This document shows, one piece after another, positions 1 through 12,864 of a DNA stretch of 64,000 nt. The stretch spans positions 512,001 through 576,000 of the forward strand of contig CAWEYL010000003.1 of NCBI GenBank assembly GCA_963813335.1. The letters run 5' to 3'. The notes under the pieces were generated by a model. That model worked only from the letters and a program-made list of their open reading frames with translations. It did not search any database and was not told where the DNA came from. Every line of letters begins with the position of its first letter. Position 1 is the first letter of the stretch. The DNA is from an uncultured Chloroflexia bacterium (GTDB taxonomy: Bacteria > Chloroflexota > Limnocylindria > Limnocylindrales > CSP1-4). Position numbers and translations under genes: made by a program.

Positions 1-642
1 TTCGACGCGCTGATGGCCAAGATCGACAAGAAGCCGCTGCCGATCCTGCGCATCGCCGGGCGGCGCAAGGTGGGGCCCGGGCTCGCCTTCACGGCGGTCC
101 TCGGCTCGCTCTACAACAAGGCCAGCTACCCCGCCCTCGAGAAGGCCCTCGCGCTCGCCAAGGCCGGGGACGGCCGGCTCCTCGTCCTGCTGTCCGACCC
201 GTTCCGCGGGCGGAAGCCCAACGGCTCCTACTCGAACCAGAGCGACGCGTACTTCTCGAACACCTGCCTGGACTTCCCGGTCTCGGCCGACGTCGCCGAC
301 TACACGGCCCTCGCCAATAACCTCCGCAAGGTCGCGCCGCGGTTCCGGGCGGTGGCCTTCAACGACCTGCCGTGCGCGTTCTGGTCGGTCCCGCCCGAGC
401 GGACGCCGGCCCCGGCGACCGGCGCCGGCGCGCCGCCGATCGTGGTGATCGGCTCGACCGGGGACCCGGCGACGCCCTTCCAGTGGGCGAGGAACCTGGC
501 CGCCCAGCTCGAGTCCGGGACGCTCATCACCCGCAAGGGCGAGGGCCACACCGGCTACTTCTTCAGCAATTGCGTGCGGAAGGCGACGAACGCCTACCTG
601 CTCGCCCTGACGGTCCCCAAGAAGAACCTCGTCTGCAAGTAG
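1..642 (+). CDS. Alpha/beta hydrolase, TAP-like peptidase C-terminal part (5' truncated)
   Basis: Frame is open from base 1. Motifs VIGSTGDPATP and EGHTGY plus paired Cys are typical of the TAP-like hydrolase C-terminus. Confidence 0.8.
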   Translation, partial: FDALMAKIDKKPLPILRIAGRRKVGPGLAFTAVLGSLYNKASYPALEKALALAKAGDGRLLVLLSDPFRGRKPNGSYSNQSDAYFSNTCLDFPVSADVADYTALANNLRKVAPRFRAVAFNDLPCAFWSVPPERTPAPATGAGAPPIVVIGSTGDPATPFQWARNLAAQLESGTLITRKGEGHTGYFFSNCVRKATNAYLLALTVPKKNLVCK

Positions 643-658
643 GGTCGGGGCGCGGGCC

Positions 659-1045
659 TCAGCGGCGGTCCTGACCGACCACCACGAGCAGGAACGACGT
701 CTCGACCACGTCGATCCCCGCGATGACCAGCGCGACCAGCAGCGGCAGCGGGTGACCGAGACCCCAGCCCCCCGCGGCCGCGAACGCGGCGATGGCCAGG
801 AACGCCAGGCGCACGCCGCGGATCAACCCCGGCACGTCCGTGGTCCCCTCGGCCATCCGGGCGAGACTGCGCGACAGCAGCAGCACGCCGACCGCCACGG
901 ACGCGCCCACCAGCGCGGCGCGGATGACGGTCGGCGGCGTCACGAGCGCGTCGAGCAGGCCGGCGGTGGAGCCGAGGACCGTGGCCGCGACCACCGCGAC
1001 CGCGCCGATCGCGAGCGCCCCGAGCGACGCCGCGCGCGGGCTCAC
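659..1045 (-). CDS. Small membrane protein (about 4 TM), last gene of the cys operon
   Basis: Hydrophobic 128 aa ORF whose start overlaps the mec stop (GTGA). Confidence 0.65.
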   Translation of the reverse strand: MSPRAASLGALAIGAVAVVAATVLGSTAGLLDALVTPPTVIRAALVGASVAVGVLLLSRSLARMAEGTTDVPGLIRGVRLAFLAIAAFAAAGGWGLGHPLPLLVALVIAGIDVVETSFLLVVVGQDRR

Positions 1046-1492
1046 GCCAGCGTCACCTCGTGGACCTCGCCGGCGACGATCCGCCAGGCGCGGACGCCCG
1101 GCTCGCCGGTCGCGGGATCGGCCTGGTCGTCGGCCAGCGAGACCAGCAGGTACAGCGCGTCGGGGTAGAAGGCGAGGCCGATGTCGGTCGGCGACGGGAC
1201 CGCCGGCGAGTGCGTGTGCGAATGGACGATCCCCCAGAAGACCTCGTCCGCATCGTCGGTCGCGATCGTCAGGCGGTACAGGTCGTCGGGGTCGATCTCG
1301 TAGCGGAGCGGGGAGGCCGCCTTGTTCCTCGTGGCCTCGAAGCGGAGCGCCTGCCCGCCGTCAGCCGCCGGCGCGTCGCCCACGATCAGGCCGCACGCCT
1401 CGTTCGGGATACTCGGCCCGGGCATGCGCGACGAGCGCGGCGCGGATCGCCGCGGGGAGCACGGCGGTCGCCGGCCCGGGATGGGCGCTCAC
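1042..1492 (-). CDS. mec: CysO-cysteine peptidase, JAMM/M67 family (frameshift near 1410)
   Basis: NEACG and HSHTHSPAVPSPTD JAMM motifs. The N-terminus (AAIRAALVAHARAEYP) lies in the adjacent frame. GTGA overlap with cysM. Confidence 0.9.
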
Positions 1493-2526
1493 CACCAGTT
1501 GACGCCACCCTCGAGCGCGTCCTCCATCTCGTCGAGCGACATCGAGAACGTGCCGGCCGAGAGGTACTTCCAGCCGCCGTCGGGGAGCAGCGCCACGATC
1601 GTGCCGCCGTCCATCTCCCTGGCGACGCGGGCCGCGGCGACGAGCACGGCGCCGCACGACGGCCCGGCGAAGATGCCCTCGCGGAAGACGAGGTCGCGCA
1701 GCGCCGCGATCGAGTCCTCGTTCGAGACGAGGTACTTCGCATCGATCAGGTCGGGCTCGAAGATCTCGGGGATGAACCCCTCGTCGAGCGAGCGCAGCCC
1801 CTGGACCTTCTCGCCGGGGAGCGGCTCGACCGCAACGACCCGGACACCCGGCTTCTGCTCGTGGAGGTAGCGCGAGACGCCCATCAGCGTCCCGGAGGTG
1901 CCGAGGCCCGCGACGAACACGTCGATCTCGGGGCAGTCCGCGAGGATCTCCGGGCCGGTGGTCTCGTAGTGGGCGAGCGTGTTGGCCGGGTTCCCGTACT
2001 GGTACGGCATCACGAACCGCTCGTCCTTGGAGACGAGGTGCTTGGCCAGCGCGATCGAGCCGTTCGAGCCGAGCGCGCCGGGCGAGTCGATGACCTCCGC
2101 GCCGTAGAGCGCGGCCATCTGGCGCCGCTCGTTGGTGACGTTGTCGGGCATGACCAGCGCGACGCGGTAGCCCTTGCGCCGGCCGATCATCGCGAGCGCG
2201 ATGCCGGTGTTGCCCGAGGTTGGCTCGAGGATGATCGACTCGGGGCCGAGCAGCCCGCGCGCCTCGAGGTCCTCGATCAGGTACTTGGCGACGCGATCCT
2301 TGACCGAGCCGGTCGGGTTCAGCATCTCCAGCTTGGCGAAGATGTGGACGTCCGGGTTCGGGCTCATCCGCGGGATCTCGACGAGCGGCGTGTGCCCGAT
2401 CGCCTCGAGGATGTCGGTGTAGCGACCGCCGTGGGGGACCATCGCCTCGTGGGCGTGGGCGTGCGCGTGCGCCTCGTCGTGCGCGTGCGGGTCTTCGGCT
2501 TCGGGGAGCCGCCAGGGGACGGCCAT
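1489..2526 (-). CDS. cysM: PLP-dependent cysteine synthase, CysO-thiocarboxylate type
   Basis: NPTGSVKDR, TSGNTG, GLGTSGT and DGGWKYLS motifs; lies between cysO and mec. Confidence 0.9.
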   Translation of the reverse strand: MAVPWRLPEAEDPHAHDEAHAHAHAHEAMVPHGGRYTDILEAIGHTPLVEIPRMSPNPDVHIFAKLEMLNPTGSVKDRVAKYLIEDLEARGLLGPESIILEPTSGNTGIALAMIGRRKGYRVALVMPDNVTNERRQMAALYGAEVIDSPGALGSNGSIALAKHLVSKDERFVMPYQYGNPANTLAHYETTGPEILADCPEIDVFVAGLGTSGTLMGVSRYLHEQKPGVRVVAVEPLPGEKVQGLRSLDEGFIPEIFEPDLIDAKYLVSNEDSIAALRDLVFREGIFAGPSCGAVLVAAARVAREMDGGTIVALLPDGGWKYLSAGTFSMSLDEMEDALEGGVNWW

Positions 2527-2529
2527 GGG

Positions 2530-2802
2530 TCAGCCCCCGGCCATCGCCGGCAGGAGCCGGACCTCGTCCGCTGCCGCGACCGGCGTGTCCAGCCCGGCGA
2601 GATAGCGGACGTCCTGGCCGTTGATGTAGACGTTGACGAACCGGTTGAGCTCGCCGTCCTCGGTCAGCAGCTGGCCGCCCAGCGACGGATGCCGCTCCAC
2701 GAGCGCGTCGACGACGTCCCGGATCGAGCCGCCATCGAGCTCCAGCGACTTGGCGCCGCCGACGTTCGGGCGGAGCACGGCCGGGATGAAGACCGTGCTC
2801 AT
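2530..2802 (-). CDS. cysO: Ubiquitin-like sulfur carrier (MoaD/ThiS family)
   Basis: 90 aa, MSTVFIP...RFVNVYINGQDVRYL...PAMAGG, ending in Gly-Gly. ATGA overlap with moeZ. Confidence 0.9.
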   Translation of the reverse strand: MSTVFIPAVLRPNVGGAKSLELDGGSIRDVVDALVERHPSLGGQLLTEDGELNRFVNVYINGQDVRYLAGLDTPVAAADEVRLLPAMAGG

Positions 2803-4025
2803 GCGCGCGCCTCGGGCGAGACCGCGCCGGCGGCACCGGTCATCGTCATCGCGAACGGGATGTCGTCGCCGACCGCGTCCACGGTGATCGGGTGGCCGGC
2901 CTTGCGCGCGGCAACGGCCTTGTCCGAGCAGACCGGGCACTCCGGGTCGCGGCGGAGCTTGAGCTCGGTGAACTCGGTCTCGAGGGCATCGAACAGGAGC
3001 AGCCGGCCGGCCAGCGTGTTGCCGATCCCGAGGAGCACCTTGAGCGCCTCGTTCGCCTGGAGCAGGCCGAGGATGCCGGGGACGACGCCGAGGACGCCGG
3101 CCACGGAGCAGCCGGGCGCGAGCTCGGGCGGCGGCGGGGTCGGGTACAGGCAGCGGTAGCACGGCCCCTCGAACGGGACGAAGGTCGTGAGCTGGCCCTC
3201 GAAGCGGAAGACCGAGGCGTGGATGACCGGGATGCCGGCCGCGACCGCCGCGTCGTTGAGGATGTAGCGGGTCTCGAACGTGTCGGTGCCGTCGAGGATC
3301 ACGTCGTAGCCGGCGATGATCCGCTCGACGTTCGCGCCGACCAGCATCTCCTCGTGGGCGACCACCTTGATCTCGGGGTTGAGCGCCTGGATCGCGATCC
3401 GCGCGGACTCGACCTTGCGCTCGCCGACCCGGTCGGTCGTGTGGATGATCTGGCGCTGCAGGTTGCTGACGTCGACGACGTCGAAGTCGACGATGCCGAT
3501 GGTCCCGACGCCCGCCGCGGCGAGGTACAGCGCGCCCGGCGAGCCGAGCCCGCCGGCGCCGATGAACAGCGCCTTCGAGCCGAGCAGCTTCGCCTGGCCG
3601 GCCGAGCCGACCTCGGGGATCAGCAGGTGGCGGCTGTAGCGCTGCTTCTGCTCCGCCGAGAGCACGACCGGCGTCTCGAACTCGAGGCCGGCGCCCTTCC
3701 AGGCCTGGAAGCCGCCCGACATCGACTTGACGTTCGTGTAGCCCATGTCGGCGAGGGTCTGGGCCGCGAACAGCGACCGCACGCCGCCCGCGCAGTACAG
3801 GATCACCGGGGCGTCGCGGTCCGGGACCGCGCCCTCGATCTGCTGCTCGATGTAGGACTTGGAGATGTGGACGGCGCCGGGGAGGTGGCCCTGGTCCCAC
3901 TCGGAGGCCTCGCGGACGTCGATGATCGCCGCGCTCCCGGGCGCGAGGGCGTCCACCTGCTGGGAGGTGACTTCATCGATCTGGGCGCGGGCCTCGCGCA
4001 GGAGGTCGGCGTAGGACTTCGGCAT
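2799..4025 (-). CDS. moeZ: Rhodanese-ThiF/MoeB sulfur-carrier adenylyltransferase/sulfurtransferase
   Basis: N-terminal rhodanese (YCAGGVRS), then RYSRH, GAGGLGSP, SNLQRQ and CYRC/CPVC zinc motifs. Confidence 0.9.
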   Translation of the reverse strand: MPKSYADLLREARAQIDEVTSQQVDALAPGSAAIIDVREASEWDQGHLPGAVHISKSYIEQQIEGAVPDRDAPVILYCAGGVRSLFAAQTLADMGYTNVKSMSGGFQAWKGAGLEFETPVVLSAEQKQRYSRHLLIPEVGSAGQAKLLGSKALFIGAGGLGSPGALYLAAAGVGTIGIVDFDVVDVSNLQRQIIHTTDRVGERKVESARIAIQALNPEIKVVAHEEMLVGANVERIIAGYDVILDGTDTFETRYILNDAAVAAGIPVIHASVFRFEGQLTTFVPFEGPCYRCLYPTPPPPELAPGCSVAGVLGVVPGILGLLQANEALKVLLGIGNTLAGRLLLFDALETEFTELKLRRDPECPVCSDKAVAARKAGHPITVDAVGDDIPFAMTMTGAAGAVSPEARA

Positions 4026-4077
4026 GGGGCTGGTTGGCTCCGATGGGACGACGGGCTGGCGGCTGGCGCCAGGGCGG

Positions 4078-4111
4078 AAACGAAAGAGAGGACGGCCCCC
4101 AGGCCGTCCTC
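4078..4111 (-). terminator. Intrinsic terminator/attenuator upstream of moeZ
   Basis: 10-bp stem GAGGACGGCC/GGCCGTCCTC with a 4-nt loop, followed on the minus strand by TCTTTCGTTT. Confidence 0.75.
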
Positions 4112-4159
4112 ACGATGAGTGGTTCGCGGGCGGGGGCGGTTCGGATGACTCGCCGGCGA

Positions 4160-4204
4160 TCAGGCCGGCCGGCGACACCTGCAGCGGCGCTCGATCCCGG
4201 TCAT
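4160..4204 (-). CDS. Putative cysteine leader peptide MTGIERRCRCRRPA
   Basis: ATG overlaps the sufU TGA (ATGA). TGC-AGG-TGT codons. Precedes a terminator and the cysteine synthesis genes. Confidence 0.55.
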   Translation of the reverse strand: MTGIERRCRCRRPA

Positions 4205-4617
4205 GCGCCGGCCTCGGCGGGGCTGGGGGTGAGGTTGGTGGGATCGGCCGCGCCGAGGTCCGCCAGCACGTGCTGGAGGCTGTCGTGGCTGAGCATCGCG
4301 CACTTGAGGCGGGCCGGGCTGATCTCGATGCCGAGCAGGTCGAGCAGGTCGTCGGCGCGGAAGCCACTGACCTCGGCGAGCGGCTTGCCCTTGATCTCGT
4401 CGGTCAGGAGCGAGGCGCTGGCCTGGCTGATCGCGCAGCCGCGGCCGGTGAAGCCGACGCGGTCCACGACCCCGTCCTTCACCCCGAGCATCAGCGTGAT
4501 CCGGTCGCCGCAGAGCGGGTTGGCGCCCTCGTACGACGCGTCGGCGTCCTCGACGACCCCGAAGTTGTGGGGGCGCCGGTAGTGCTCGAGGATGTAGTCG
4601 CGGTAGAGGTCGTCCAT
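4201..4617 (-). CDS. sufU: SUF system NifU-like protein
   Basis: LYRDYILEHY, NPLCGD, GCAISQASAS and ARLKCAML motifs. Confidence 0.9.
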   Translation of the reverse strand: MDDLYRDYILEHYRRPHNFGVVEDADASYEGANPLCGDRITLMLGVKDGVVDRVGFTGRGCAISQASASLLTDEIKGKPLAEVSGFRADDLLDLLGIEISPARLKCAMLSHDSLQHVLADLGAADPTNLTPSPAEAGA

Positions 4618-4643
4618 GGCTGTCTCGAAGTCTAGCGCGTCTG

Positions 4644-4674
4644 TCTAATCCCGACCAGCAAGGTCGGGATTAGA
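4644..4674. promoter_or_regulatory. IscR/Rrf2-type operator upstream of sufU
   Basis: Perfect 13-bp inverted repeat TCTAATCCCGACC-N5-GGTCGGGATTAGA. Minus-strand -10-like TAGACT at 4634-4629. Matches the site upstream of rrf2. Confidence 0.75.
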
Positions 4675-4703
4675 TCCGGCCGGCTCGGGCCCGTCGGTGG
4701 GCA

Positions 4704-4778
4704 GGGACGCGTCAGAGCGCCGGGACGCGTCGGAGCGCGGCCGGGGCGCCGTCCTCGTGCTCGGGGCGCCGTCCTCGT
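4704..4778. repeat. Two pairs of short tandem duplications
   Basis: GGGACGCGTC(A/G)GAGCGC at 4704 and 4722; CGGGGCGCCGTCCTCGT at 4742 and 4762. Confidence 0.7.
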
Positions 4779-4975
4779 ACCCTGGGCCGTCATCGTCACG
4801 CGCTGGCGCCGTTGTCGTGCGCTGGGCCATCCATGGACCGTCCGACAAAGGAGCCGCATGGGATCGCCGTCGGATAGTCCTCTGACCACCTCGGATGCTC
4901 TCTTCGTCGTCGATCGGCCCGCCATTGGTCATTTCGATGAAGGAGGACGAGCGGGCGACCGCCTCCGGACCTTCG

Positions 4976-5054
4976 GCTGGCCGGTCGGACGGTCCGTCGG
5001 CAGCCCACGCGTGCCAGCCCGCTGGCCGGTCGGACGGTCCGTCGGCAGACCACG
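4976..5054. repeat. 34-bp direct repeat with internal palindrome
   Basis: GCTGGCCGGTCGGACGGTCCGTCGGCAG(C/A)CCACG at 4976 and 5021, period 45. Confidence 0.8.
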
Positions 5055-5169
5055 TCGGCCCGTGAGCGCAGTGGCCGGCTGTGCGGGTCAGTACTGTTGC
5101 GACCCTTGGACGGTACGAAACGCTCCCTGCACGGCGGTCGCGAGGCCCTATCGTCCATCACCCGTGGTG

Positions 5170-6450
5170 ATGAGTGGCGCGCACCCGACCTCCATCTCGC
5201 TGTCTGGCCAGGCATCGAAGCGAGGCCCGATCCGGCGGGTGCCCACGGCCGAGCGCCTCACGGGCGACATCGAGACCTGGCTCCGGACCGAGTACGCGAC
5301 GGCCGTCCGTTCGATCCTGCGTCAGATCAAGTCGACCGGTGAGGAGCGCCTGCTGGTCGACTTCCATCCCGCGGCCGCGCCTGTCGCGATCGTCGTGAGC
5401 GAGTCGGGTCAGGTCGACGTCACGATGGAGGCTGTCTACGCGGGTCCCGGGTATCACCGCTTCGTCGGGCGCGTGCTCGAGCGTCTCGGGCAGGAACTCT
5501 CGATCGAGTGGGACGCACCGTCCGACGATCCGTCGGCGGCCGTCAGCTTCAGTGATCGCGCGGCGACCGAGCACGACTACCTGGGCTGGCTCGGGACGGC
5601 GCTCGCCGACGTCCGCGCAGCACGGCGGCTCGGATCAGGACCGCAGCATCTCGGCACCCCGTCAGGCGTGACGTACTCGATCGGCGGGGCGCTCGCCACG
5701 GTCCTGGGACCACGCGACGACACATGGCTCGATGCCGCGATCGCCGATCCGCGCCATGCGATCGACATCGTGCCCTGGTGGGCCGACGCGACCGACGGCC
5801 GATCCCTCATGAATCAGGCGCTCGTTCTGATGTGGCTCGAGATCCGCTGGCGCCGTCCCGCCCTCGAGGGTGAAGCGGCGACATTCGACGAGGTCCATCG
5901 CCTCCTGTCACGCGCATACCCGCTCGACCCGGACCTCCCCTACCCGTGGACCGCCTGGGCGGAGTTGGCCACCCTTCGCGGCATCGATGACCCGATGGCC
6001 CGACAGGCGATCGCGCGGGCGGAACGCGACGGCGAGCCACCCGGGCCTCCGATCGGCTATCGGCGCCTGCCCGTCCGGATCAGCCACGAGGGTTGGGTCC
6101 TGGATGGCGTCCCCGGCTCGTTCGCAGAGCGCCGGACCGACGAGGAGTGGTGGGGCGGCGGAGCGGGCCGAGGCATCACGCTCGCCGCGATCGACACCGG
6201 AACGATGAGCGCGGAAGCATTCCTCGATCAGGTCGCAGCCGGGCTCGGCCCGGACGTCCTGGATCATCGGGCCGGTCCGATCGTCGGTCGTGGGCGGCTG
6301 ACGTCAGATGCGAGTTCCGGTGTGGCCGTCGGGGTCGTCGAAGGGTTCTCGGCCGTGCCCGGTTCCGGTGCGGTGATCCGCATCGTCTTCGACGATCCGG
6401 CCGACTGGCAATGGGCGCTCGAGACGTGGCGAGGGCTCGCCCCGGGCTGA
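5170..6450 (+). CDS. Hypothetical protein (~426 aa, GPGYH motif)
   Basis: Long globular-looking ORF. The upstream extension to 4858 is repeat-derived, so the start is placed at ATG 5170. Confidence 0.6.
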   Translation: MSGAHPTSISLSGQASKRGPIRRVPTAERLTGDIETWLRTEYATAVRSILRQIKSTGEERLLVDFHPAAAPVAIVVSESGQVDVTMEAVYAGPGYHRFVGRVLERLGQELSIEWDAPSDDPSAAVSFSDRAATEHDYLGWLGTALADVRAARRLGSGPQHLGTPSGVTYSIGGALATVLGPRDDTWLDAAIADPRHAIDIVPWWADATDGRSLMNQALVLMWLEIRWRRPALEGEAATFDEVHRLLSRAYPLDPDLPYPWTAWAELATLRGIDDPMARQAIARAERDGEPPGPPIGYRRLPVRISHEGWVLDGVPGSFAERRTDEEWWGGGAGRGITLAAIDTGTMSAEAFLDQVAAGLGPDVLDHRAGPIVGRGRLTSDASSGVAVGVVEGFSAVPGSGAVIRIVFDDPADWQWALETWRGLAPG

Positions 6451-6529
6451 ATGCCGCAGGAGGGGGCGATCGCGCTGGCCTCCGATCGGCTGCGCGCGGC
6501 GTGGAGGGTCGTCGTGCGATGCTTCGAGG

Positions 6530-7172
6530 ATGTACGTGCCCGCCCATTTCAAACCCGACGACGACGAGGTCCGCGAGCTCCTGCGGAATGTCGGGGCCGC
6601 CGACCTGATCACCTCGACCGCCGACGGGCTGCTCGCGACGATGCTGCCGCTCATCTGGATCGAGCCGAAGGCCGGCACGGACGGCTGGGGTGTCCTGCAC
6701 GGGCACGTCGCGCGCAACAACCGACAATGGAAGGTGCCCGCGGTCGGCGACGCCATGGCCATCATCCGGGGCCCGAACGCGTACATCTCGCCGGCCTGGT
6801 ACGCGACGAAACGCGAGCACGGCCGCGTGGTCCCGACCTGGAACTACATCACCGCCCACGTCCACGGCCGGCTCGTCATCCACGACGATCCGGCCTGGGT
6901 CGAGGTCAACGTGCGGGCCCTGAGCGACCGCCACGAGGCGGCGCGCGAGCAGCCCTGGTCGGTCGACGACGCGCCCGTGCCCTACATCGAGGGCCAGCTG
7001 AAGGCGATCGTCGGCGTCGAGCTCGTCGATCGACCGCGTCGAGGGCAAGTGGAAGCTCAGCCAGAACCGCTCCGACGCGGACATCGCCGGCACGATCGAG
7101 GGCCTCGAGGCGTCCGGCGAGAAAGGGGTCTCGGCGGCGATCCGGGCGCTCGGACGAGGCGGCCCGACCTAG
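6530..7172 (+). CDS. paiB: PaiB-like FMN-binding protein (frameshift near 7030)
   Basis: MYVPAHF, GHVARNN, YISPAWY and VPTWNY motifs; continues as RVEGKWKLSQNR in a shifted frame to TAG 7172. Confidence 0.85.
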
Positions 7173-7296
7173 CCGAGGACGCCCTCCCATCCTTCGCCAC
7201 GCGACAGGGCAGGACGCGTATGCTCCATCCATCACGGTCAGGCGTCGAGCCTCACTTCCGGATCGCGACCCGGAACGCAGCCTAGCGCCTGCAGGT

Positions 7297-7397
7297 GAAG
7301 GGACTGGCTCACAGTCCCGACTTGGTTGTCACAGATGGAGGAGGCCCGGGTTCGGCGTATCGCGCCGCCCGTTGGTCCATCGGGACACAAGCCCTTC
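7297..7397 (+). promoter_or_regulatory. Structured 5' leader of ABC operon 1 (riboswitch candidate)
   Basis: Nested pairings GAAGGG/CCCTTC, CTTG/CAAG, TGTC/GACA, GATGGA/TCCATC and CGGCG/CGCCG end just before the GAGGAGG RBS. Confidence 0.35.
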
Positions 7398-7412
7398 GTT
7401 GAGGAGGTACAC

Positions 7413-8535
7413 GTGCAAAACCAGAAGGTCCGTCTCGCCGCCTTGTTCGGGATCGCAGCGTTGCTCCTGGCGGCATGCAGCAGCGCCGGCTCATCGCCCG
7501 CGGTCGCGGCAAAGGACGCCAAGTCGGCCGCCGACATGGGCGGTGTCGACGCCGTCTGCGCCGCCGGCAAGACCGAGGGCACCGTCAACATCATCGCCAC
7601 CCCGCCCGACTGGGCGAACTACGGGCAGATGATCACCGACTTCACGGCGAAGTACGGGATCAAGGTCCAGTCCGACAAGCCCGGACGGCAACAGCCAGGA
7701 CGAGATCAACCAGGCCACCCAGCTGGCCGGCACCGGGCGCCAGCCCGACCTCTTCGACCTGGGATCCGTCGTCGCCGCGGCGCACACCGACATGTACGCC
7801 CCGTACAAGGTGGCCACGTGGGCGGACATCCCCGACGCCAACAAGGAGGCCACCGGCCTCTGGTGGAACAACTACACCGGGTTCATCACGATCGGCTACG
7901 ACACCAAGCTCGGCGACATCCAGAAGCTCGCCGACCTCGCCGATCCCAAGTACAAGGGCAAGGTCGCGCTCAACGGCGATCCGCTCAAGGCGTCGGCCGG
8001 CTTCAACGGCGTGGTCGCGGCCTCCCTGGCCAATGGCGGCTCCGCGGATAACATCGCGCCCGGTGTCGACTTCTTCAAGAAGCTCGCCGATAGCGGCAAC
8101 CTCATCCCGGTCGACCCGGACCCAGGCACGATCGCGGCGGGGACCACCCCGATCGTGATCGACTGGACCTACACCAACGGCGCCCAGACCGCAGTCCTCG
8201 CGCCGAAGGGCATCACCTGGAAGACCGTCGTCCCGTCGGACTCGCCGCCGGTCGCCGCCTACTACAACTCGGCGATCAACAAGGACGCCGCGCATCCCGC
8301 GGCCGCCCGCTGCTGGTTTGAATACGCGTTCTCGGACGCCGGCCAGAACACGTGGCTGAAGGGCTTCGCCCTGCCAGTCCGCCTGGCCGCCATGCAGAAG
8401 GCCGGGACCGCCGACGCGGCAGCCCTCGCCGCCATCAACCCGCCGACGACCCCGCCGGTCCAGCTGACCCAGGCGCAGACCGACACGGCCACGAAGTACC
8501 TCACCGACAACTGGAAGTTCATCGCCATCAAGTAG
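7413..8535 (+). CDS. ABC substrate-binding lipoprotein, PotD/AfuA-like (frameshift near 7685)
   Basis: RBS GAGGAGG, GTG start, lipobox LLAAC, ATPPDWANYG; paralog of 55111-56250. Confidence 0.85.
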
Positions 8536-8566
8536 CCCGGCCTCTCGGTCGAGCGGTCGCGTCGAC

Positions 8567-9507
8567 ATGACCGATCCATCGGTCAGCACGGCCCGGCCGA
8601 CGCCACGGTGTCGGCCGGCCCCGCCTCGAGCGGGGCCGGTTCGCGCCGCCTCCGGGGAGCGGCGAACTACGTCGCCCTGACCCCCTTCCTCGCCTACGTC
8701 GGGTTGTTCCTCATCGTCCCGACGCTGGTCGTCACGTACGGGGCGCTCACGACCGCTGACGGCCAGTTCACGTTCGACAACATCGCCAGCATGTTCACGG
8801 ACGATGTCTTCGTCCAGGCCGTTCGTGCGGTCGATCCAGCTCGCGGTGGCCACGGCGATCGCGGGCGCCATCTTCGGCGGCGCTCCTCGCCTGGGCGGTG
8901 GTCCGCGGCGATCCCGACGGCCTCCTTCGGCAGCTGGTGATCGCGGCATCCGGCGTCCTCGCCCAGTTCGGCGGCGTCATGCTCGCCTTCGCGTTCCTCG
9001 CGACCTTCGGGATCCGGGGCCTCGCCACGGTGTTCCTCACGGACACCCTGCACCTCGACCTCCTCTCGGACGCGTCGTGGCTCTACAGCCTCGCCGGCCT
9101 GGCCGTCGTCTACACCTACTTCCAGATCCCGCTGATGCTGATCGTCTTCCTGCCGTCGCTCGACGGGCTCCGCCAGGAGTGGTACGACGCGTCGTCGAGC
9201 CTCGGCGGCAGTCGCCTGGTCGTTCTGGCGACGCGTCGGCGGGCCGATCCTCGCACCGTCCTTCCTGGGCGCGCTCCTGCTGCTCTTCACGAACGCGTTC
9301 TCCGCCTACGCGACGGCCGCGGCGCTCGTCAGCCAGGGCAGTCCGATCGTCACGCTCCAGATCGCCTGACAAGATGCAGAGCGAGGTCGTGCTCGGGCCA
9401 GGAGAATGTCGGCAAGGCGCTGGCGCTCGGGATGATCCTGGTCGTCTCGCTGGTGATGGCTGCTCTACGCGTTCATCCAGCGGCGCGCCTCGCGGTGGGT
9501 CCGATGA
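8567..9507 (+). CDS. ABC permease (multiple frameshifts)
   Basis: TM segments and YFQIPLM...DGLRQEWYDASSSLG (EAA loop) spread over several frames. Confidence 0.75.
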
Positions 9508-10399
9508 CCGACATGCAGGGCCCCGAGCTCGCGGCGCGCGGCGCCGGGAGGCGGCGCGCTGCATCGCGCGGCCGACCGGTGCGGTCGCCGGGGGCCACGT
9601 CGGCATGTCCCGGCACGGGCTCGCGATCCTCGTCATCGTGCTCGGCTACCTGGTCCTGCCGCTGTTCGCGATGCTCGAGTTCTCGACGCGCGGCAACTAC
9701 GGGAGCCGGAGCCTCGACTCGTACGCGGCGATCTTCTCCGACCAGAACCTCATCGACGGCATCACGAACGTCGCTCGAGATCGCGGTCCTGACGGTCGCC
9801 GGCATGCTCCTGCTGCTCGTGCCCGACGATGGTCTGGACGGTCGTGCGCGTCCCGCGCATGCGCCAGGTGATCGAGTTCCTGTGCCTGCTGCCACTGGCC
9901 ATCCCGGCCATCGTCATCGTCGTGGGGATCGCCCCGATCTACCGCTGGATGGGCCAGCACCTCGGGGCGGTCGGGGCGTCCCCGTTGACGCTCGCCTTCA
10001 TCGACATCATCCTGGTGCTCCCCTTCGCGTACCGCGCGATCGACGCGAGCCTGCGGTCGATCGACACGGCCACGCTCGCCGAGGCGGCCCGCAGCCTGGG
10101 GGCCAGCTGGCCGCGGGCGATCTTCCAGGTGATCGTCCCGAACATCCGCGGCGGCATCGTCTCGGCGTCGGTCCTCGCGGTCGCGCTCGTCCTCGGCGAA
10201 TACACGATCTCGTCGCTGCTGTCGTTCAACACGCTGCAGGTGGTCATCTACCTGCTCGGCAAGCGCGACCCGTTCATCGCGGTCGCGGTGTCCTTCGCCG
10301 CCCTGACCTTCGCGTTCGTCCTGCTGTTCGTCATCACCCGCTTCGCGCCCGGGCCAGGGCCGCGGTACCGAGCAAGCCGCCGAGGAGCCCACGACATGA
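9504..10399 (+). CDS. ABC permease 2 (multiple frameshifts)
   Basis: EAA motif TLAEAARSLGA; ATGA overlaps at both ends. Confidence 0.75.
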
Positions 10400-11470
10400 C
10401 CGTCAACGAGCCTCGCCCCTGCCGCGAACGGGCATGGCGTCGGCGTCGAGTTCCAGGAGCTGCACCGCTGGTACGGCCCGGTCCATGCCCTTGACGGGCT
10501 GACGATCGACATCAAGCCGGGCGAGCTTGATCGCGCTGCTCGGGCCGTCGGGCTGCGGCAAGACGACGGCGCTCCGCGCGCTCGGCGGGCTCGACGTCGT
10601 CGACGCAGGGACGGATCCTGGTGGACGGCAAGGACATGACCCACGTGCCCGCGAACAAGCGGAACATGGGCATCGTCTTCCAGGCCTACAGCCTGTTCCC
10701 GAACATGACGGCGCGCGACAACGTGGGCTACGGCCTGCGGCTGCGGGGCGTGGACGGGGCGAGGCGCAAGAAGCAGGCCGAGGCGATGCTCGAGCTGGTC
10801 GGGCTCGCGCAGCAGGCCAGCCGCTACCCGCACCAGATGTCGGGCGGCCAGCAGCAGCGCGTCGCGCTCGCCCGCGCGCTCGCCATCGAGCCCAAGCGTG
10901 CTCCTGCTCGACGAGCCGCTGTCGGCGCTCGACGCGAAGGTGCGGCGTCAGCTCCGCGAGGAGATCCGGCGCATCCAGATCATGATCGGCATCACGACAC
11001 TGTTCGTGACCCACGACCAGGAGGAGGCGCTCGCGATGGGCGACCGCGTCGGCGTCATGTCGGCTGGCCGGCTCGAGCAGATCGCGGCCCCGTCCGAGCT
11101 CTACGACCGCCCGCGGACGCGGTTCGTGGCCGAGTTCGTCGGCCTGACCAACCGGATGCCCGGGACCGCCGCCGGCGGATCGGTCAACGTGCTCGGCACG
11201 CCGGTGCCGCTGCTCGAGGGCTCGGCGCAGTCCGGACCGGTCCACGCGCTGGTACGACCGGAGAACGTGCGACTCGCGGCCGCGGATGACGGCAGGGCGC
11301 GGGTCCTCGCGGTCAGCTTCCTCGGATCGCTGTGCCGCGCCCAGGTCACGCTGCTCGACGGGACCCTGGTGGTCGCGCAGATGTCGGCGTCCGATGCCAG
11401 CGGCCTGATCCCGGGGGCGGCGGTCTCGGTCAGCGTCGTGCCCGGCCCGGTCTTCGCCGTCGCCGACTGA
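10396..11470 (+). CDS. ABC ATP-binding protein, PotA-like (multiple frameshifts)
   Basis: [31 protein letters not shown] and a TOBE-like C-terminus. Confidence 0.85.
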
Positions 11471-11497
11471 CGCTGCCCAGCGAGGATCCCCGCGGTC

Positions 11498-12864
11498 ATG
11501 AAGCAGATCACCGAAGCCGCCCGCAGCGTCGACGTCATCCACGAGACCGACGTGCTCGTCGTCGGGAGCGGCCCGGGCGGGCTGTCGGCGGCGCTCGCGG
11601 CCGCGCGGGCCGGCGCCACGACGACGCTCCTCGACCGCTACGGCTGCTTCGGCGGGAACATGACCCAGGTCGGCGTCGAGAGCATCGGCTGGTACCGCCA
11701 CGAGGCGACCGTGGAGGCCGATGGGATCGGCCGCGAGTTCGAGGAGCGCGCCGCGGCGATGGGCGCCGCGAACCCCGAAAGCCAGTCGCTGAGCATGGGC
11801 ATCGACGGCGAGCGCTTCAAGTACGTCGCGGACGTGCTGGTCGCCGAGGCCGGCATCACCCCGATGCTTCACCGCCTCGCCGTGCGGCCGATCGTCGAGG
11901 ACGGCGCCATCCGTGGGGTCATCACCGAGAGCAAGTCGGGCCGCGAGGCGGTGCTCGCGAAGCGGGTCGTCGACGCAACTGGCGACGCCGACATGGCCGC
12001 GCGCGCCGGCGCGCCGGTCCGCAAGACGCCGAAGGAGGAGATGCTCGCGGCGTCCGTGATGTTCTCGATGACCGGCGTCAACAAGCGCAAGTTCCTCGAC
12101 GAGGTCAAGGCGGATTCGCCCACCTACCGCGACTGGGCCGGCAACGCGGAATGGGACATCGAGACCACCGGGAAGGAGGACGAGCTCTTCTCGCCGTTCC
12201 TCCGCAAGCCGTTCAAGCGCGCCGTCGAGGCCGGTCTGATCCCGCCCGACTTCATCACCCTCGCCGGGACGTGGGGCACGATCACCGACCAGGGCGACCT
12301 CACGTACCTCAACCTCGTCCACCTGGCCGGGGTCGACGGCACGGACGCGGACGCGCTGACCCGCGGCGAGATCGCCGGTCGCGAGGAGGCGATGCAGGCG
12401 ATCAAGGCGCTCCGCGCGTTCATGCCCGGCTGCGACGACGCCAAGCTCCGCAACTTCGGCATGACCATCGGGATCCGCGACACGCGCAAGATCGAGGCGC
12501 TTTACGACCTGACCGAGCGGGACGTCCGCGAGCAGGGCCGCTTCGAGGATTCGATCGGCATCTTCCCCGAGTTCATCGACGGGTACGGGATCCTGATCCT
12601 GCCGACCACGGGCCGCTACTTCCAGGTGCCGTACCGCTCACTCGTGCCGAAGGGCATCGGACACCTGATCGTCGCCGGACGGTCGATCGGCGGCGACAAG
12701 GTCTCGCATGCGTCGACCCGGAACATGATGTGCTGCGCGGTCAGCGGCCAGGGTGCCGGGGTCGCCGCGGCCGTCTCGGTCCGGACGGACCAGCCGTTCG
12801 ATCGGGTCGACGTCGCGCACAGGTCCAGGCCGAGCTTCGTCGCCAGGGCGTCCGGCTCGACTGA
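11498..12864 (+). CDS. FAD-dependent oxidoreductase (PF12831-like; frameshift near 12818)
   Basis: VVGSGPGG, VDATGDAD and FQVPYRSLVP...LIVAGR motifs; ends VQAELRRQGVRLD in a shifted frame. Confidence 0.85.

Follow-up and report, generated by a model that had tools for sequence, protein, structure and literature searches.

A conserved cysteine-codon leader open reading frame opening on the sufU stop codon ahead of moeZ-cysO-cysM-mec in Limnocylindria, a probable cysteine gauge

How might a bacterium gauge its cysteine supply inside an operon, between one sulfur gene and the next? We addressed this question in a stretch of 64,000 nucleotides (hereafter, the window) of an uncultured bacterium of the class Limnocylindria, phylum Chloroflexota (contig CAWEYL010000003.1 of assembly GCA_963813335.1, positions 512,001 to 576,000). 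The genome assembly comprises 2.54 Mb in 7 contigs and has 71.9% G+C. Between its sufU-like and moeZ-like genes lies a 14-codon open reading frame (ORF) with two Cys codons. An earlier interpretation of these letters by themselves (the sequence-only reading) had proposed that ribosomes stalling at the Cys codons free an antiterminator, so that cysteine starvation allows read-through of an intrinsic terminator into moeZ-cysO-cysM-mec. Comparison with relatives divided that proposal. The leader part was supported, in the form of a sufU-coupled, translated-looking ORF with conserved Cys codons at the head of a cysteine unit; the terminator switch was not. We consider it fairly likely that this intergenic element of a single operon is a leader ORF that senses cysteine by way of the ribosome, and the conserved Cys ORF probably works as a ribosome-based cysteine gauge. 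All features of the leader locus lie on the minus strand, and those between the sufU stop and the moeZ start are as follows.

4204-4160, minus strand: leader ORF of 14 codons, MTGIERRCRCRRPA; its start ATG overlaps the sufU TGA and its own stop TGA is at 4162-4160
4183-4181, 4180-4178 and 4177-4175, minus strand: proposed sensor codons UGC, AGG and UGU, compared across 76 unique loci
4169-4164 and 4157-4152, minus strand: hairpin P1, GCCGGC with GCCGGC around the loop CUGAUC, which holds the leader stop (alignment and RNAalifold)
4151-4112, minus strand: spacer rich in C and poor in G, whose sequence and length differ from one relative to the next
4111-4088 and 4087-4078, minus strand: terminator-like hairpin, a 10-bp stem and a U-rich tail (TCTTTCGTTT), found by pattern scan
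4076-4073, 4072-4056 and 4055-4049, minus strand: block 2, consisting of CGCC, hairpin P2 (CUGGCG/CGCCAG) and CCCGUCG (74-locus alignment)
4041-4038 and 4025-4023, minus strand: GGAG and ATG of the moeZ ribosome-binding region (sequence and alignment)

The leader reads ATG ACC GGG ATC GAG CGC CGC TGC AGG TGT CGC CGG CCG GCC TGA. A GAGG resembling a Shine–Dalgarno (SD) motif stands about 7 nt 5' of its start, within sufU, and its stop is separated from the moeZ start by 134 nt. Among 948 long ORFs of this genome with high third-position GC content (GC3), Cys accounted for 0.55% of all codons, TGT for 9.4% of Cys codons and AGG for 3.1% of Arg codons. The sequence-only reading had described the ORF opening on the sufU stop, the scarcity of TGT and AGG, and the moeZ-cysO-cysM-mec genes downstream, and was borne out on each point. 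The leader-word motif is single-copy in the genome and hence does not represent a repeat family. Other Cys-rich short ORFs in the genome numbered 36, mostly alternative frames of coding sequence. The best of them, MCCPCRHPS, lies outside the window, 40 nt 5' of an amino-acid permease gene (same assembly, contig C3 490582-492400); it was absent 5' of all seven orthologs at 71-79% identity and was treated as a probable chance occurrence.

The sufU-moeZ junction was compared among relatives, whose loci are designated here by L numbers. For the same-genus sample, 60 relatives were searched with the MoeZ-like protein, which gave 30 loci (77-91% protein identity). sufU adjoins moeZ in 29 of them, and the 30th is truncated by a contig end. 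The intergenic region of the 29 intact loci measures 108-208 nt. Every one of the 29 carries the leader ORF (10-34 codons), beginning with an ATG or GTG that overlaps the sufU stop as ATGA, GTGA or TGATG and following the consensus (R/S)-C-R-C-x-x-P-(A/V)-stop. An exact-motif scan of one genome per species returned at least 119 matches, 80 of which were fetched: 34 were sufU loci of this class, and 46 were coincidences inside unrelated coding genes, for example of Mycobacterium and Streptomyces. Five of the 34 were excluded, because the sufU frame was broken (L094, L115), the locus had no sufU (L087) or the next gene encoded a peroxiredoxin (L075, L119). After six duplicates were dropped, 52 unique loci were obtained. 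As a motif scan can only find motif carriers, a blind sample was also drawn from sufU matches. It comprised 36 loci, picked without sight of the intergenic regions, in 35 genomes that belong to other genera within the family. Ten of the genomes tallied among the sufU matches were flagged as unpublished, and nothing stated here depends on them. A coupled leader ORF was present in 25 of the 36, ahead of moeZ in 24 and ahead of a 1-Cys peroxiredoxin gene in one. The remainder consisted of a locus with a single Cys codon (L192), a locus without the ORF (L195), four loci with overlapping or abutting sufU and moeZ, and five with sufU apart from moeZ. The coupled Cys ORF that an alignment of sufU-moeZ regions had been expected to reveal is thus conserved, both within the genus and in other genera.

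One chance match at a locus without moeZ (L165) was removed before reading frames were counted in 77 loci. The Cys codons share the frame of the start overlapping the sufU stop in 74, at 17 different in-frame distances. Throughout the 76 unique copies TGC comes first among the Cys codons and TGT second, with AGG between them in 71, GCG in two, and ATG, ACG and ACC in one each. Every one of the 76 leaders has two to four Cys codons with varying neighbours; three or four are found in eight copies (e.g., CCRC, CLGCCRC, CACRCTC and CRCC). Leader length ranges from 10 to 66 codons, and neither the N-terminal part nor the residues after the second Cys are conserved. An SD-like motif precedes the leader start by 4-16 nt in 56 of the 76 copies, and the distance from the leader stop to the moeZ ATG varies from 67 to 139 nt. 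Variation at the middle codon and the occurrence of additional Cys codons point to the Cys codons themselves, not a fixed RNA motif, as the target. Judged on sequence, this pattern shows selection on the translated frame and the Cys codons and not on a fixed RNA word, and chance falls far short of explaining the conservation of the ORF, of its Cys codons and of the first hairpin.

Several loci are arranged differently. In L230 (G125:C7) the leader is followed by a 1-Cys peroxiredoxin gene, overlapping moeZ, and then by ThiS and PALP genes. A peroxiredoxin gene also lies between leader and moeZ in L075 and L119, where its stop overlaps the moeZ start. With this insertion the leader also heads a thiol-peroxidase gene. 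The genes 3' of the leader belong to the CysO/CysM cysteine pathway in every case, including the loci in which the 1-Cys peroxiredoxin gene comes first. In relatives without the leader ORF (L173, L184-L186, L200, L040 and L041), sufU and moeZ overlap directly, which argues that the two genes form one translational unit into which the leader was inserted. In loci L099 and L164 the Cys codons are separated from the sufU stop by some 150 nt extra with GC-rich hairpins; there, a GTG 10 nt past the sufU stop would still open an in-frame ORF of more than 60 codons, and L164 also has a nearer ATG. Three loci were sampled in another family of the class; their sufU stands among different genes, with a SufB-like gene next in at least two. 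The sufU-moeZ junction is built differently again in a sister family with genomes of about 1 Mb. In L032-L039 of that family, a -10-like hexamer TAGnnT follows sufU, 6-8 nt before the ATG of a conserved ORF, MSAAELIASVAGEPSICRRPSSPAPRPLAR, which has a single Cys codon, UGU; between this ORF and moeZ stands a gene for a membrane protein. The MSAAELIASVAGEPSICRRPSSPAPRPLAR ORF may be related to the leader while being itself leaderless. An Rfam scan of three sister-family loci gave nothing relevant.

The second conserved element is hairpin P1, which encloses the leader stop as the sequence-only reading had drawn it; in this genome the stem can be extended to 8 bp, TCGCCGGC (4175-4168) pairing with GCCGGCGA (4157-4150). 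Across 74 aligned loci GCCGG is invariant and the 3' arm is at least 90% conserved. Exactly 5 nt separate UGU from the 5' arm in all of the aligned copies, and the leader stop falls within the loop in 70 of the 76 copies. RNAalifold predicted P1 with six pairs from 43 full leaders, including one compensatory U-A change (L029) and one G-U pair. On the ribosome, a first paired base at about +12 from the P-site codon stands at the mRNA channel entrance. With UGU in the A site, the GCCGGC hairpin would begin at about +12, at the mouth of the channel, so that a waiting ribosome would leave P1 folded and an advancing one would melt it.

These elements suggest the following mechanism. Ribosomes leaving sufU would restart on the overlapping AUG or enter via the SD-like GAGG, and would translate an ORF of 10-66 codons in which UGC-NNN-UGU, ahead of a Pro-Ala encoded by the hairpin, are the sole conserved codons. 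A shortage of Cys-tRNA would make the ribosome wait at UGC/UGU, of which UGU is a rare, wobble-read codon. An unstalled ribosome would melt P1 and terminate in its loop. The difference between the two states would set the expression of the (prx)-moeZ-cysO-cysM-mec unit. Both a rise in downstream expression upon stalling and the route to it are our inference.

One such route, classical attenuation, was at the centre of the sequence-only reading: a stall at the Cys codons would free a GGCCGGCCUG/GAGGACGGCC antiterminator, which would block the intrinsic terminator at 4111-4078. Its parts do exist in the window. A pattern scan recovered the terminator-like hairpin with its U-rich tail (three overlapping matches at one site vs. 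0.9 +/- 0.9 in shuffles of 500-7000), which occurs once in the genome, and a hand check reproduced the complementarity of GGCCGGCCUG and GAGGACGGCC at 8 of 10 positions. Neither the terminator nor the 8/10 pairing is conserved beyond chance, however. Stem and U tail together are limited to the window and its nearest relative L101, which has a weaker tail, that is, to two of the 76 unique loci; three more (L022, L026 and L108) have the stem without the tail, and most others have a different hairpin or none. In folds of the window's RNA with the ribosome at UGC, UGU or the stop, the antiterminator had a pairing probability of 0.000 each time, and when the RNA 3' of the ribosome was folded by itself, the terminator formed at 0.93-0.99 for every ribosome position. 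Another folding run gave terminator probabilities of 0.12-0.26 with UGC and 0.53-0.89 with UGU in the A site, but the competing pairs were formed by arbitrarily included sufU coding RNA 5' of the ribosome and not by the proposed antiterminator. The 3' end of the leader is held by P1, which is the more stable of the two folds. Classical attenuation is therefore very improbable as an account of the leader. This lineage acquired the intrinsic terminator at 4111-4078 recently, and its probable effect is a constitutive reduction of read-through.

Short contigs in RNA libraries from soil cover the 3' end of sufU, the leader, the spacer, the terminator and the 5' end of moeZ, and bridge the terminator in three of four runs. 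The bridging contigs are compatible with read-through and are no proof of a single transcript. No contig in the four runs covers the region 5' of about 4750, an absence that is uninterpretable since the region is unconserved and the contigs come from relatives. A promoter scan of 500-7000 found no sigma-70-like site, and no TAnnnT was seen by eye in the spacers; neither result excludes a promoter for moeZ.

If the switch is not an intrinsic terminator, its output may lie in the RNA between P1 and moeZ. This tract is C-rich and G-poor, as the sequence-only reading had noted: from leader stop to moeZ ATG, C averages 48% and G 27%, C exceeds G in 76 of 76 loci, and the mean difference is attained by 0.27% of 100-nt windows of the genome. 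Near its 3' end, block 2 contains hairpin P2, which is supported by covariation: 51 cells of the alignment changed on both sides vs. 25.3 in shuffles, a value attained by none of 500 shuffles, and the registered structure outscored all slid versions. The fourth pair of P2 occurs as G-C, C-G, U-A or A-U. The P2 block is single-copy in the genome. A three-way junction, with GCUG and CAGG of the leader-word motif pairing with CAGC and CCUG at the P2 base, was rejected on natural variants, since L046 and L179 keep the motif despite a CCG/CGG P2 base and L161 and L171 change the motif. In L195 (G329:C1) the leader ORF is lost, and CCGCCCUG-hairpin-CAGCCCGUCG-SD is kept 10 nt after the sufU stop; block 2 can thus work without the Cys ORF. 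Besides P1, RNAalifold predicted in the 43 full leaders nothing but a weak helix of 3 bp, CCG/CGG, that would join CCCGUCG to CGGAG. The genome also encodes a protein with a Rho_RNA_bind domain (102.5 bits).

Taken together, the C-rich spacer, the P2 block and the rho gene suggest an output of the Rho type or at the level of translation. Supposing that the ORF is a Cys sensor, Rho termination in the spacer and in block 2, which resembles a Rho utilization (rut) site, relieved while a ribosome is engaged, has somewhat less than an even chance of being the route. Control of moeZ translation initiation, via the weak CCG/CGG helix beside the SD or via a partner of block 2, is possible but rather unlikely, and some other route is a little less likely again. 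A more specific version, an intercistronic attenuator without an alternative fold, we advance as doubtful in its entirety: a ribosome parked at UGC/UGU against GCCGGC and still coupled to the polymerase would deny Rho the conserved rut-like block, and once the ribosome terminates in the P1 loop, Rho would halt transcription before moeZ.

Several points weigh against a cysteine-sensing leader as outlined above. Partition-function folding of the 52-unique-locus set, from which loci without a GGAG-like SD were skipped, gave a mean SD unpaired probability of 0.29 with the ribosome at the Cys codons, 0.29 with the ribosome at the stop and 0.30 with no mask. Duplexes between the stall-covered segment and the SD/AUG were no better than those of shuffles (mean z +0.61, n = 75; 3% of loci below z -1.64). 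As thermodynamic predictions in very GC-rich RNA, these negatives on SD pairing are weak evidence. Folding, RNAalifold and duplex tests together found no alternative RNA fold joining the stall site to an output. A stall upstream would by itself leave the rut-like tract unmasked, and the Rho route would need retained coupling of ribosome and polymerase. The Cys codons in the window number just two and are non-adjacent, whereas the mycobacterial work required two consecutive ones. The arms of P1 are conserved in sequence with almost no covariation, and P1 could be a sequence-specific site beyond a hairpin; the strict TGC/TGT choice might likewise stem from some RNA-level constraint. The RNA contigs, which derive from relatives with 88-99% identity, are short and may include DNA. 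Translation of the leader is suggested indirectly, by the overlapping start, the retained frame and the SD-like motif.

Three readings other than cysteine sensing were weighed against the same evidence. The ORF could be a relay without any sensing, keeping ribosomes on the mRNA or handing them to moeZ by reinitiation or scanning so that the SufU:MoeZ ratio is fixed. The overlap of leader start and sufU stop, the direct coupling of sufU and moeZ in some relatives, and a G-poor spacer that would hold little structure all agree with this reading, and a published hypothesis holds that leader genes boost expression by reinitiation (PMC4833913). In that hypothesis, however, the distance to the next start is about 10 nt, far from the 67-139 nt seen here, and a relay leaves the invariant Cys codons, the codon choice and the extra Cys codons unexplained. 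We regard it as improbable. The peptide itself might instead matter, either as a C-x-C micropeptide (e.g., a metal- or sulfur-binding partner of SufU or MoeZ) or as a tunnel-sensing arrest peptide such as TnaC or SpeFL. The conserved C-x-C, the C-terminal Pro-Ala right before the stop, and the position of the stop beside a C-rich tract as at tnaC, a comparison also drawn in PMC1262725, would fit. A length that varies between 10 and 66 codons would not, and neither would the lack of conservation at the N-terminus and past the second Cys; moreover, the Pro-Ala is encoded by a hairpin arm and need not be selected as peptide, and peptide function does not require a fixed synonymous choice of TGC and TGT. 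This reading too is improbable, if by a shade less so than the relay.

Finally, the locus could be a structured RNA, either a riboswitch or a protein site, in which the reading frame is incidental. Within the genus CGCUGCAGGUGU is nucleotide-invariant, the P1 arms are conserved without covariation, P2 with its invariant single-stranded flanks resembles an aptamer or operator, and block 2 persists without the ORF in L195. Yet the frame and the overlapping start have survived many indels, and the middle codon shifts to GCG, ATG, ACG or ACC without any change in the Cys codons. Folding and duplex tests revealed no long-range pairing, Rfam 15 gave no covariance match in 4026-4204 even at E 10, and none of the eight weak matches in a scan of 1-12000 attained its gathering score. 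A structured RNA as the whole explanation is quite improbable, more so than either a relay or a functional peptide.

We compared the proposed cysteine-sensing leader with known systems. As the host is a member of the Chloroflexota (Limnocylindria) and not an actinobacterium, the actinobacterial precedents serve as analogy and not as a family assignment. Mycobacteria have polycysteine leaderless short ORFs (sORFs) that form a Cys 'ribulon' (Canestrari et al. 2020, 10.1101/834739). The leader resembles these in that the Cys codons lie near the 3' end of an ORF directly 5' of cysteine-metabolism genes, and in that Cys-tRNA sensing by ribosome pausing is proposed with an intrinsic terminator unneeded. 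Unlike the sORFs described in that source, it is found in another phylum, is neither leaderless nor the first cistron, starts on the sufU stop, and has a C-x-C encoded by fixed UGC then UGU in 76 of 76 copies. Among the leader peptides listed, adjacent Cys residues besides C-x-C occur in L114, L188 and L194 only. A duplex between the stall region and the ribosome-binding site (RBS), as in the Ms5788A mechanism of the same source, was not found here by folding predictions. Three marks of the mycobacterial leaderless sORFs are thus absent from the locus: the leaderless start, the consecutive Cys codons and, by thermodynamic prediction, the stall-RBS duplex.

Candidate Cys leader peptides without terminators have been reported for actinobacterial cys operons, where a Rho mechanism like that of tna was suggested (Seliverstov et al. 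2005, PMC1262725). Both there and here a Cys leader is followed by a pyrimidine-rich tract with no conserved terminator. The actinobacterial candidates are, as described in that source, 5' leaders with Cys runs and unconserved poly-pyrimidine motifs, whereas the leader studied here is intercistronic and its C-rich tract holds a conserved hairpin block. The uORFC-8-2 motif 5' of cysS in Rhodobacterales (Brewer et al. 2021, PMC8632094) shares an upstream ORF (uORF) with two conserved Cys codons and has been read as ribosome-mediated attenuation. According to that source, though, its tandem Cys codons lie inside a stem, an intrinsic terminator with a U run is always present, and it controls cysS and not cysteine synthesis, uncoupled from an upstream gene. 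Measured against amino-acid attenuators in general, the locus has an ORF next to cysteine genes with enriched and conserved Cys codons, and no pair of mutually exclusive folds, terminator and antiterminator, was found.

Rho-dependent uORF attenuators include E. coli tnaC and Salmonella mgtL. E. coli toiL is another (PMC12121999). As in these three, a uORF is followed by a C-rich G-poor untranslated tract, and ribosome position is proposed to gate Rho; the genome of the window has both the tract after the uORF and a rho gene. Unlike in tnaC, mgtL and toiL as described, there is no evident steric masking here, as the stall site lies 15-21 nt before the stop, and no alternative fold was found.

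Cys-codon leader ORFs have thus been described in mycobacteria (10.1101/834739) and predicted in several Actinobacteria (PMC1262725) and at cysS of Rhodobacterales (PMC8632094); they are experimentally shown in mycobacteria only and predicted in a few other groups. With the present locus, the principle would also apply in a class of Chloroflexota that is uncultured and abundant in soil, and to cysteine synthesis by the CysO/CysM sulfur-carrier route. A full-text literature search, with subscription journals outside its reach, found no publication on a Cys leader in Limnocylindria or Chloroflexota or on one coupled to an upstream gene. The layout is unusual in being intra-operon, with a restart on the stop of a sulfur-relay gene, two non-adjacent Cys codons of fixed codon choice and a hairpin at a fixed distance, and with neither a conserved terminator nor an RBS-sequestering duplex. 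Should the output be Rho-dependent, the locus would offer a clean natural case of ribosome position governing Rho in GC-rich bacteria without canonical terminators; should the coupling model hold, Chloroflexota would possess a Rho switch that senses cysteine and works through coupling. For annotation, a conserved unannotated ORF and a candidate regulatory RNA can be added to many Limnocylindria genomes.

The genes around the leader were identified by Pfam domains, or, for the small cysO-like ORF, by an ortholog that matches Pfam ThiS.

4617-4201, minus strand: sufU-like gene with a NifU_N domain (Pfam E 1.9e-23), ending ...GCA TGA, with the TGA at 4203-4201
4025-2799, minus strand: moeZ-like gene (Pfam ThiF 1.1e-81, Rhodanese 3.3e-22)
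2802-2530, minus strand: cysO-like ThiS-fold ORF, ending Gly-Gly; its ATG overlaps the moeZ stop
2526-1489, minus strand: cysM-like PALP gene (Pfam)
1425-1042, minus strand: mec-like JAB gene (Pfam)

The sufU-like gene is present in one copy in this genome. In the MoeZ-like protein the rhodanese domain is N-terminal (residues 28-111) and the ThiF domain follows (130-365), an order that we take to be the opposite of that in mycobacterial MoeZR. The moeZ-cysO-cysM-mec set matches the MoeZ/CysO/CysM/Mec sulfur-carrier route to cysteine, an assignment that follows the well-known mycobacterial system (see also PMC3227635).

Control may also be exerted farther upstream, at a candidate promoter and operator of sufU.

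4674-4644, minus strand: inverted repeat TCTAATCCCGACC-N5-GGTCGGGATTAGA, candidate operator (sequence and conservation)
4634-4629, minus strand: TAGACT, candidate -10 hexamer (sequence and conservation)

The inverted repeat, perfect over 13 bp, stands at the -35 place; the distance from the -10-like TAGACT to the ATG of sufU is 11 nt. Of 29 same-genus loci, 28 carry a recognisable form of the repeat, which is degenerate in L010, L012 and L023 and absent from L013, and TAnnnT occurs 5' of sufU in all 29. The repeat is, on sequence grounds, likely an operator for a regulator of the sufU-moeZ unit, and transcription of the whole unit is therefore probably also controlled at initiation. In the roughly 3 kb 5' of sufU (about 4636-7630), the ORFs tested gave no Pfam match, and third-position GC bias is just weak: the best frames there (4636-6450 and 6377-7285, both on the plus strand) have a GC3 of 0.79-0.82 vs. 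0.92-0.99 in neighbouring genes.

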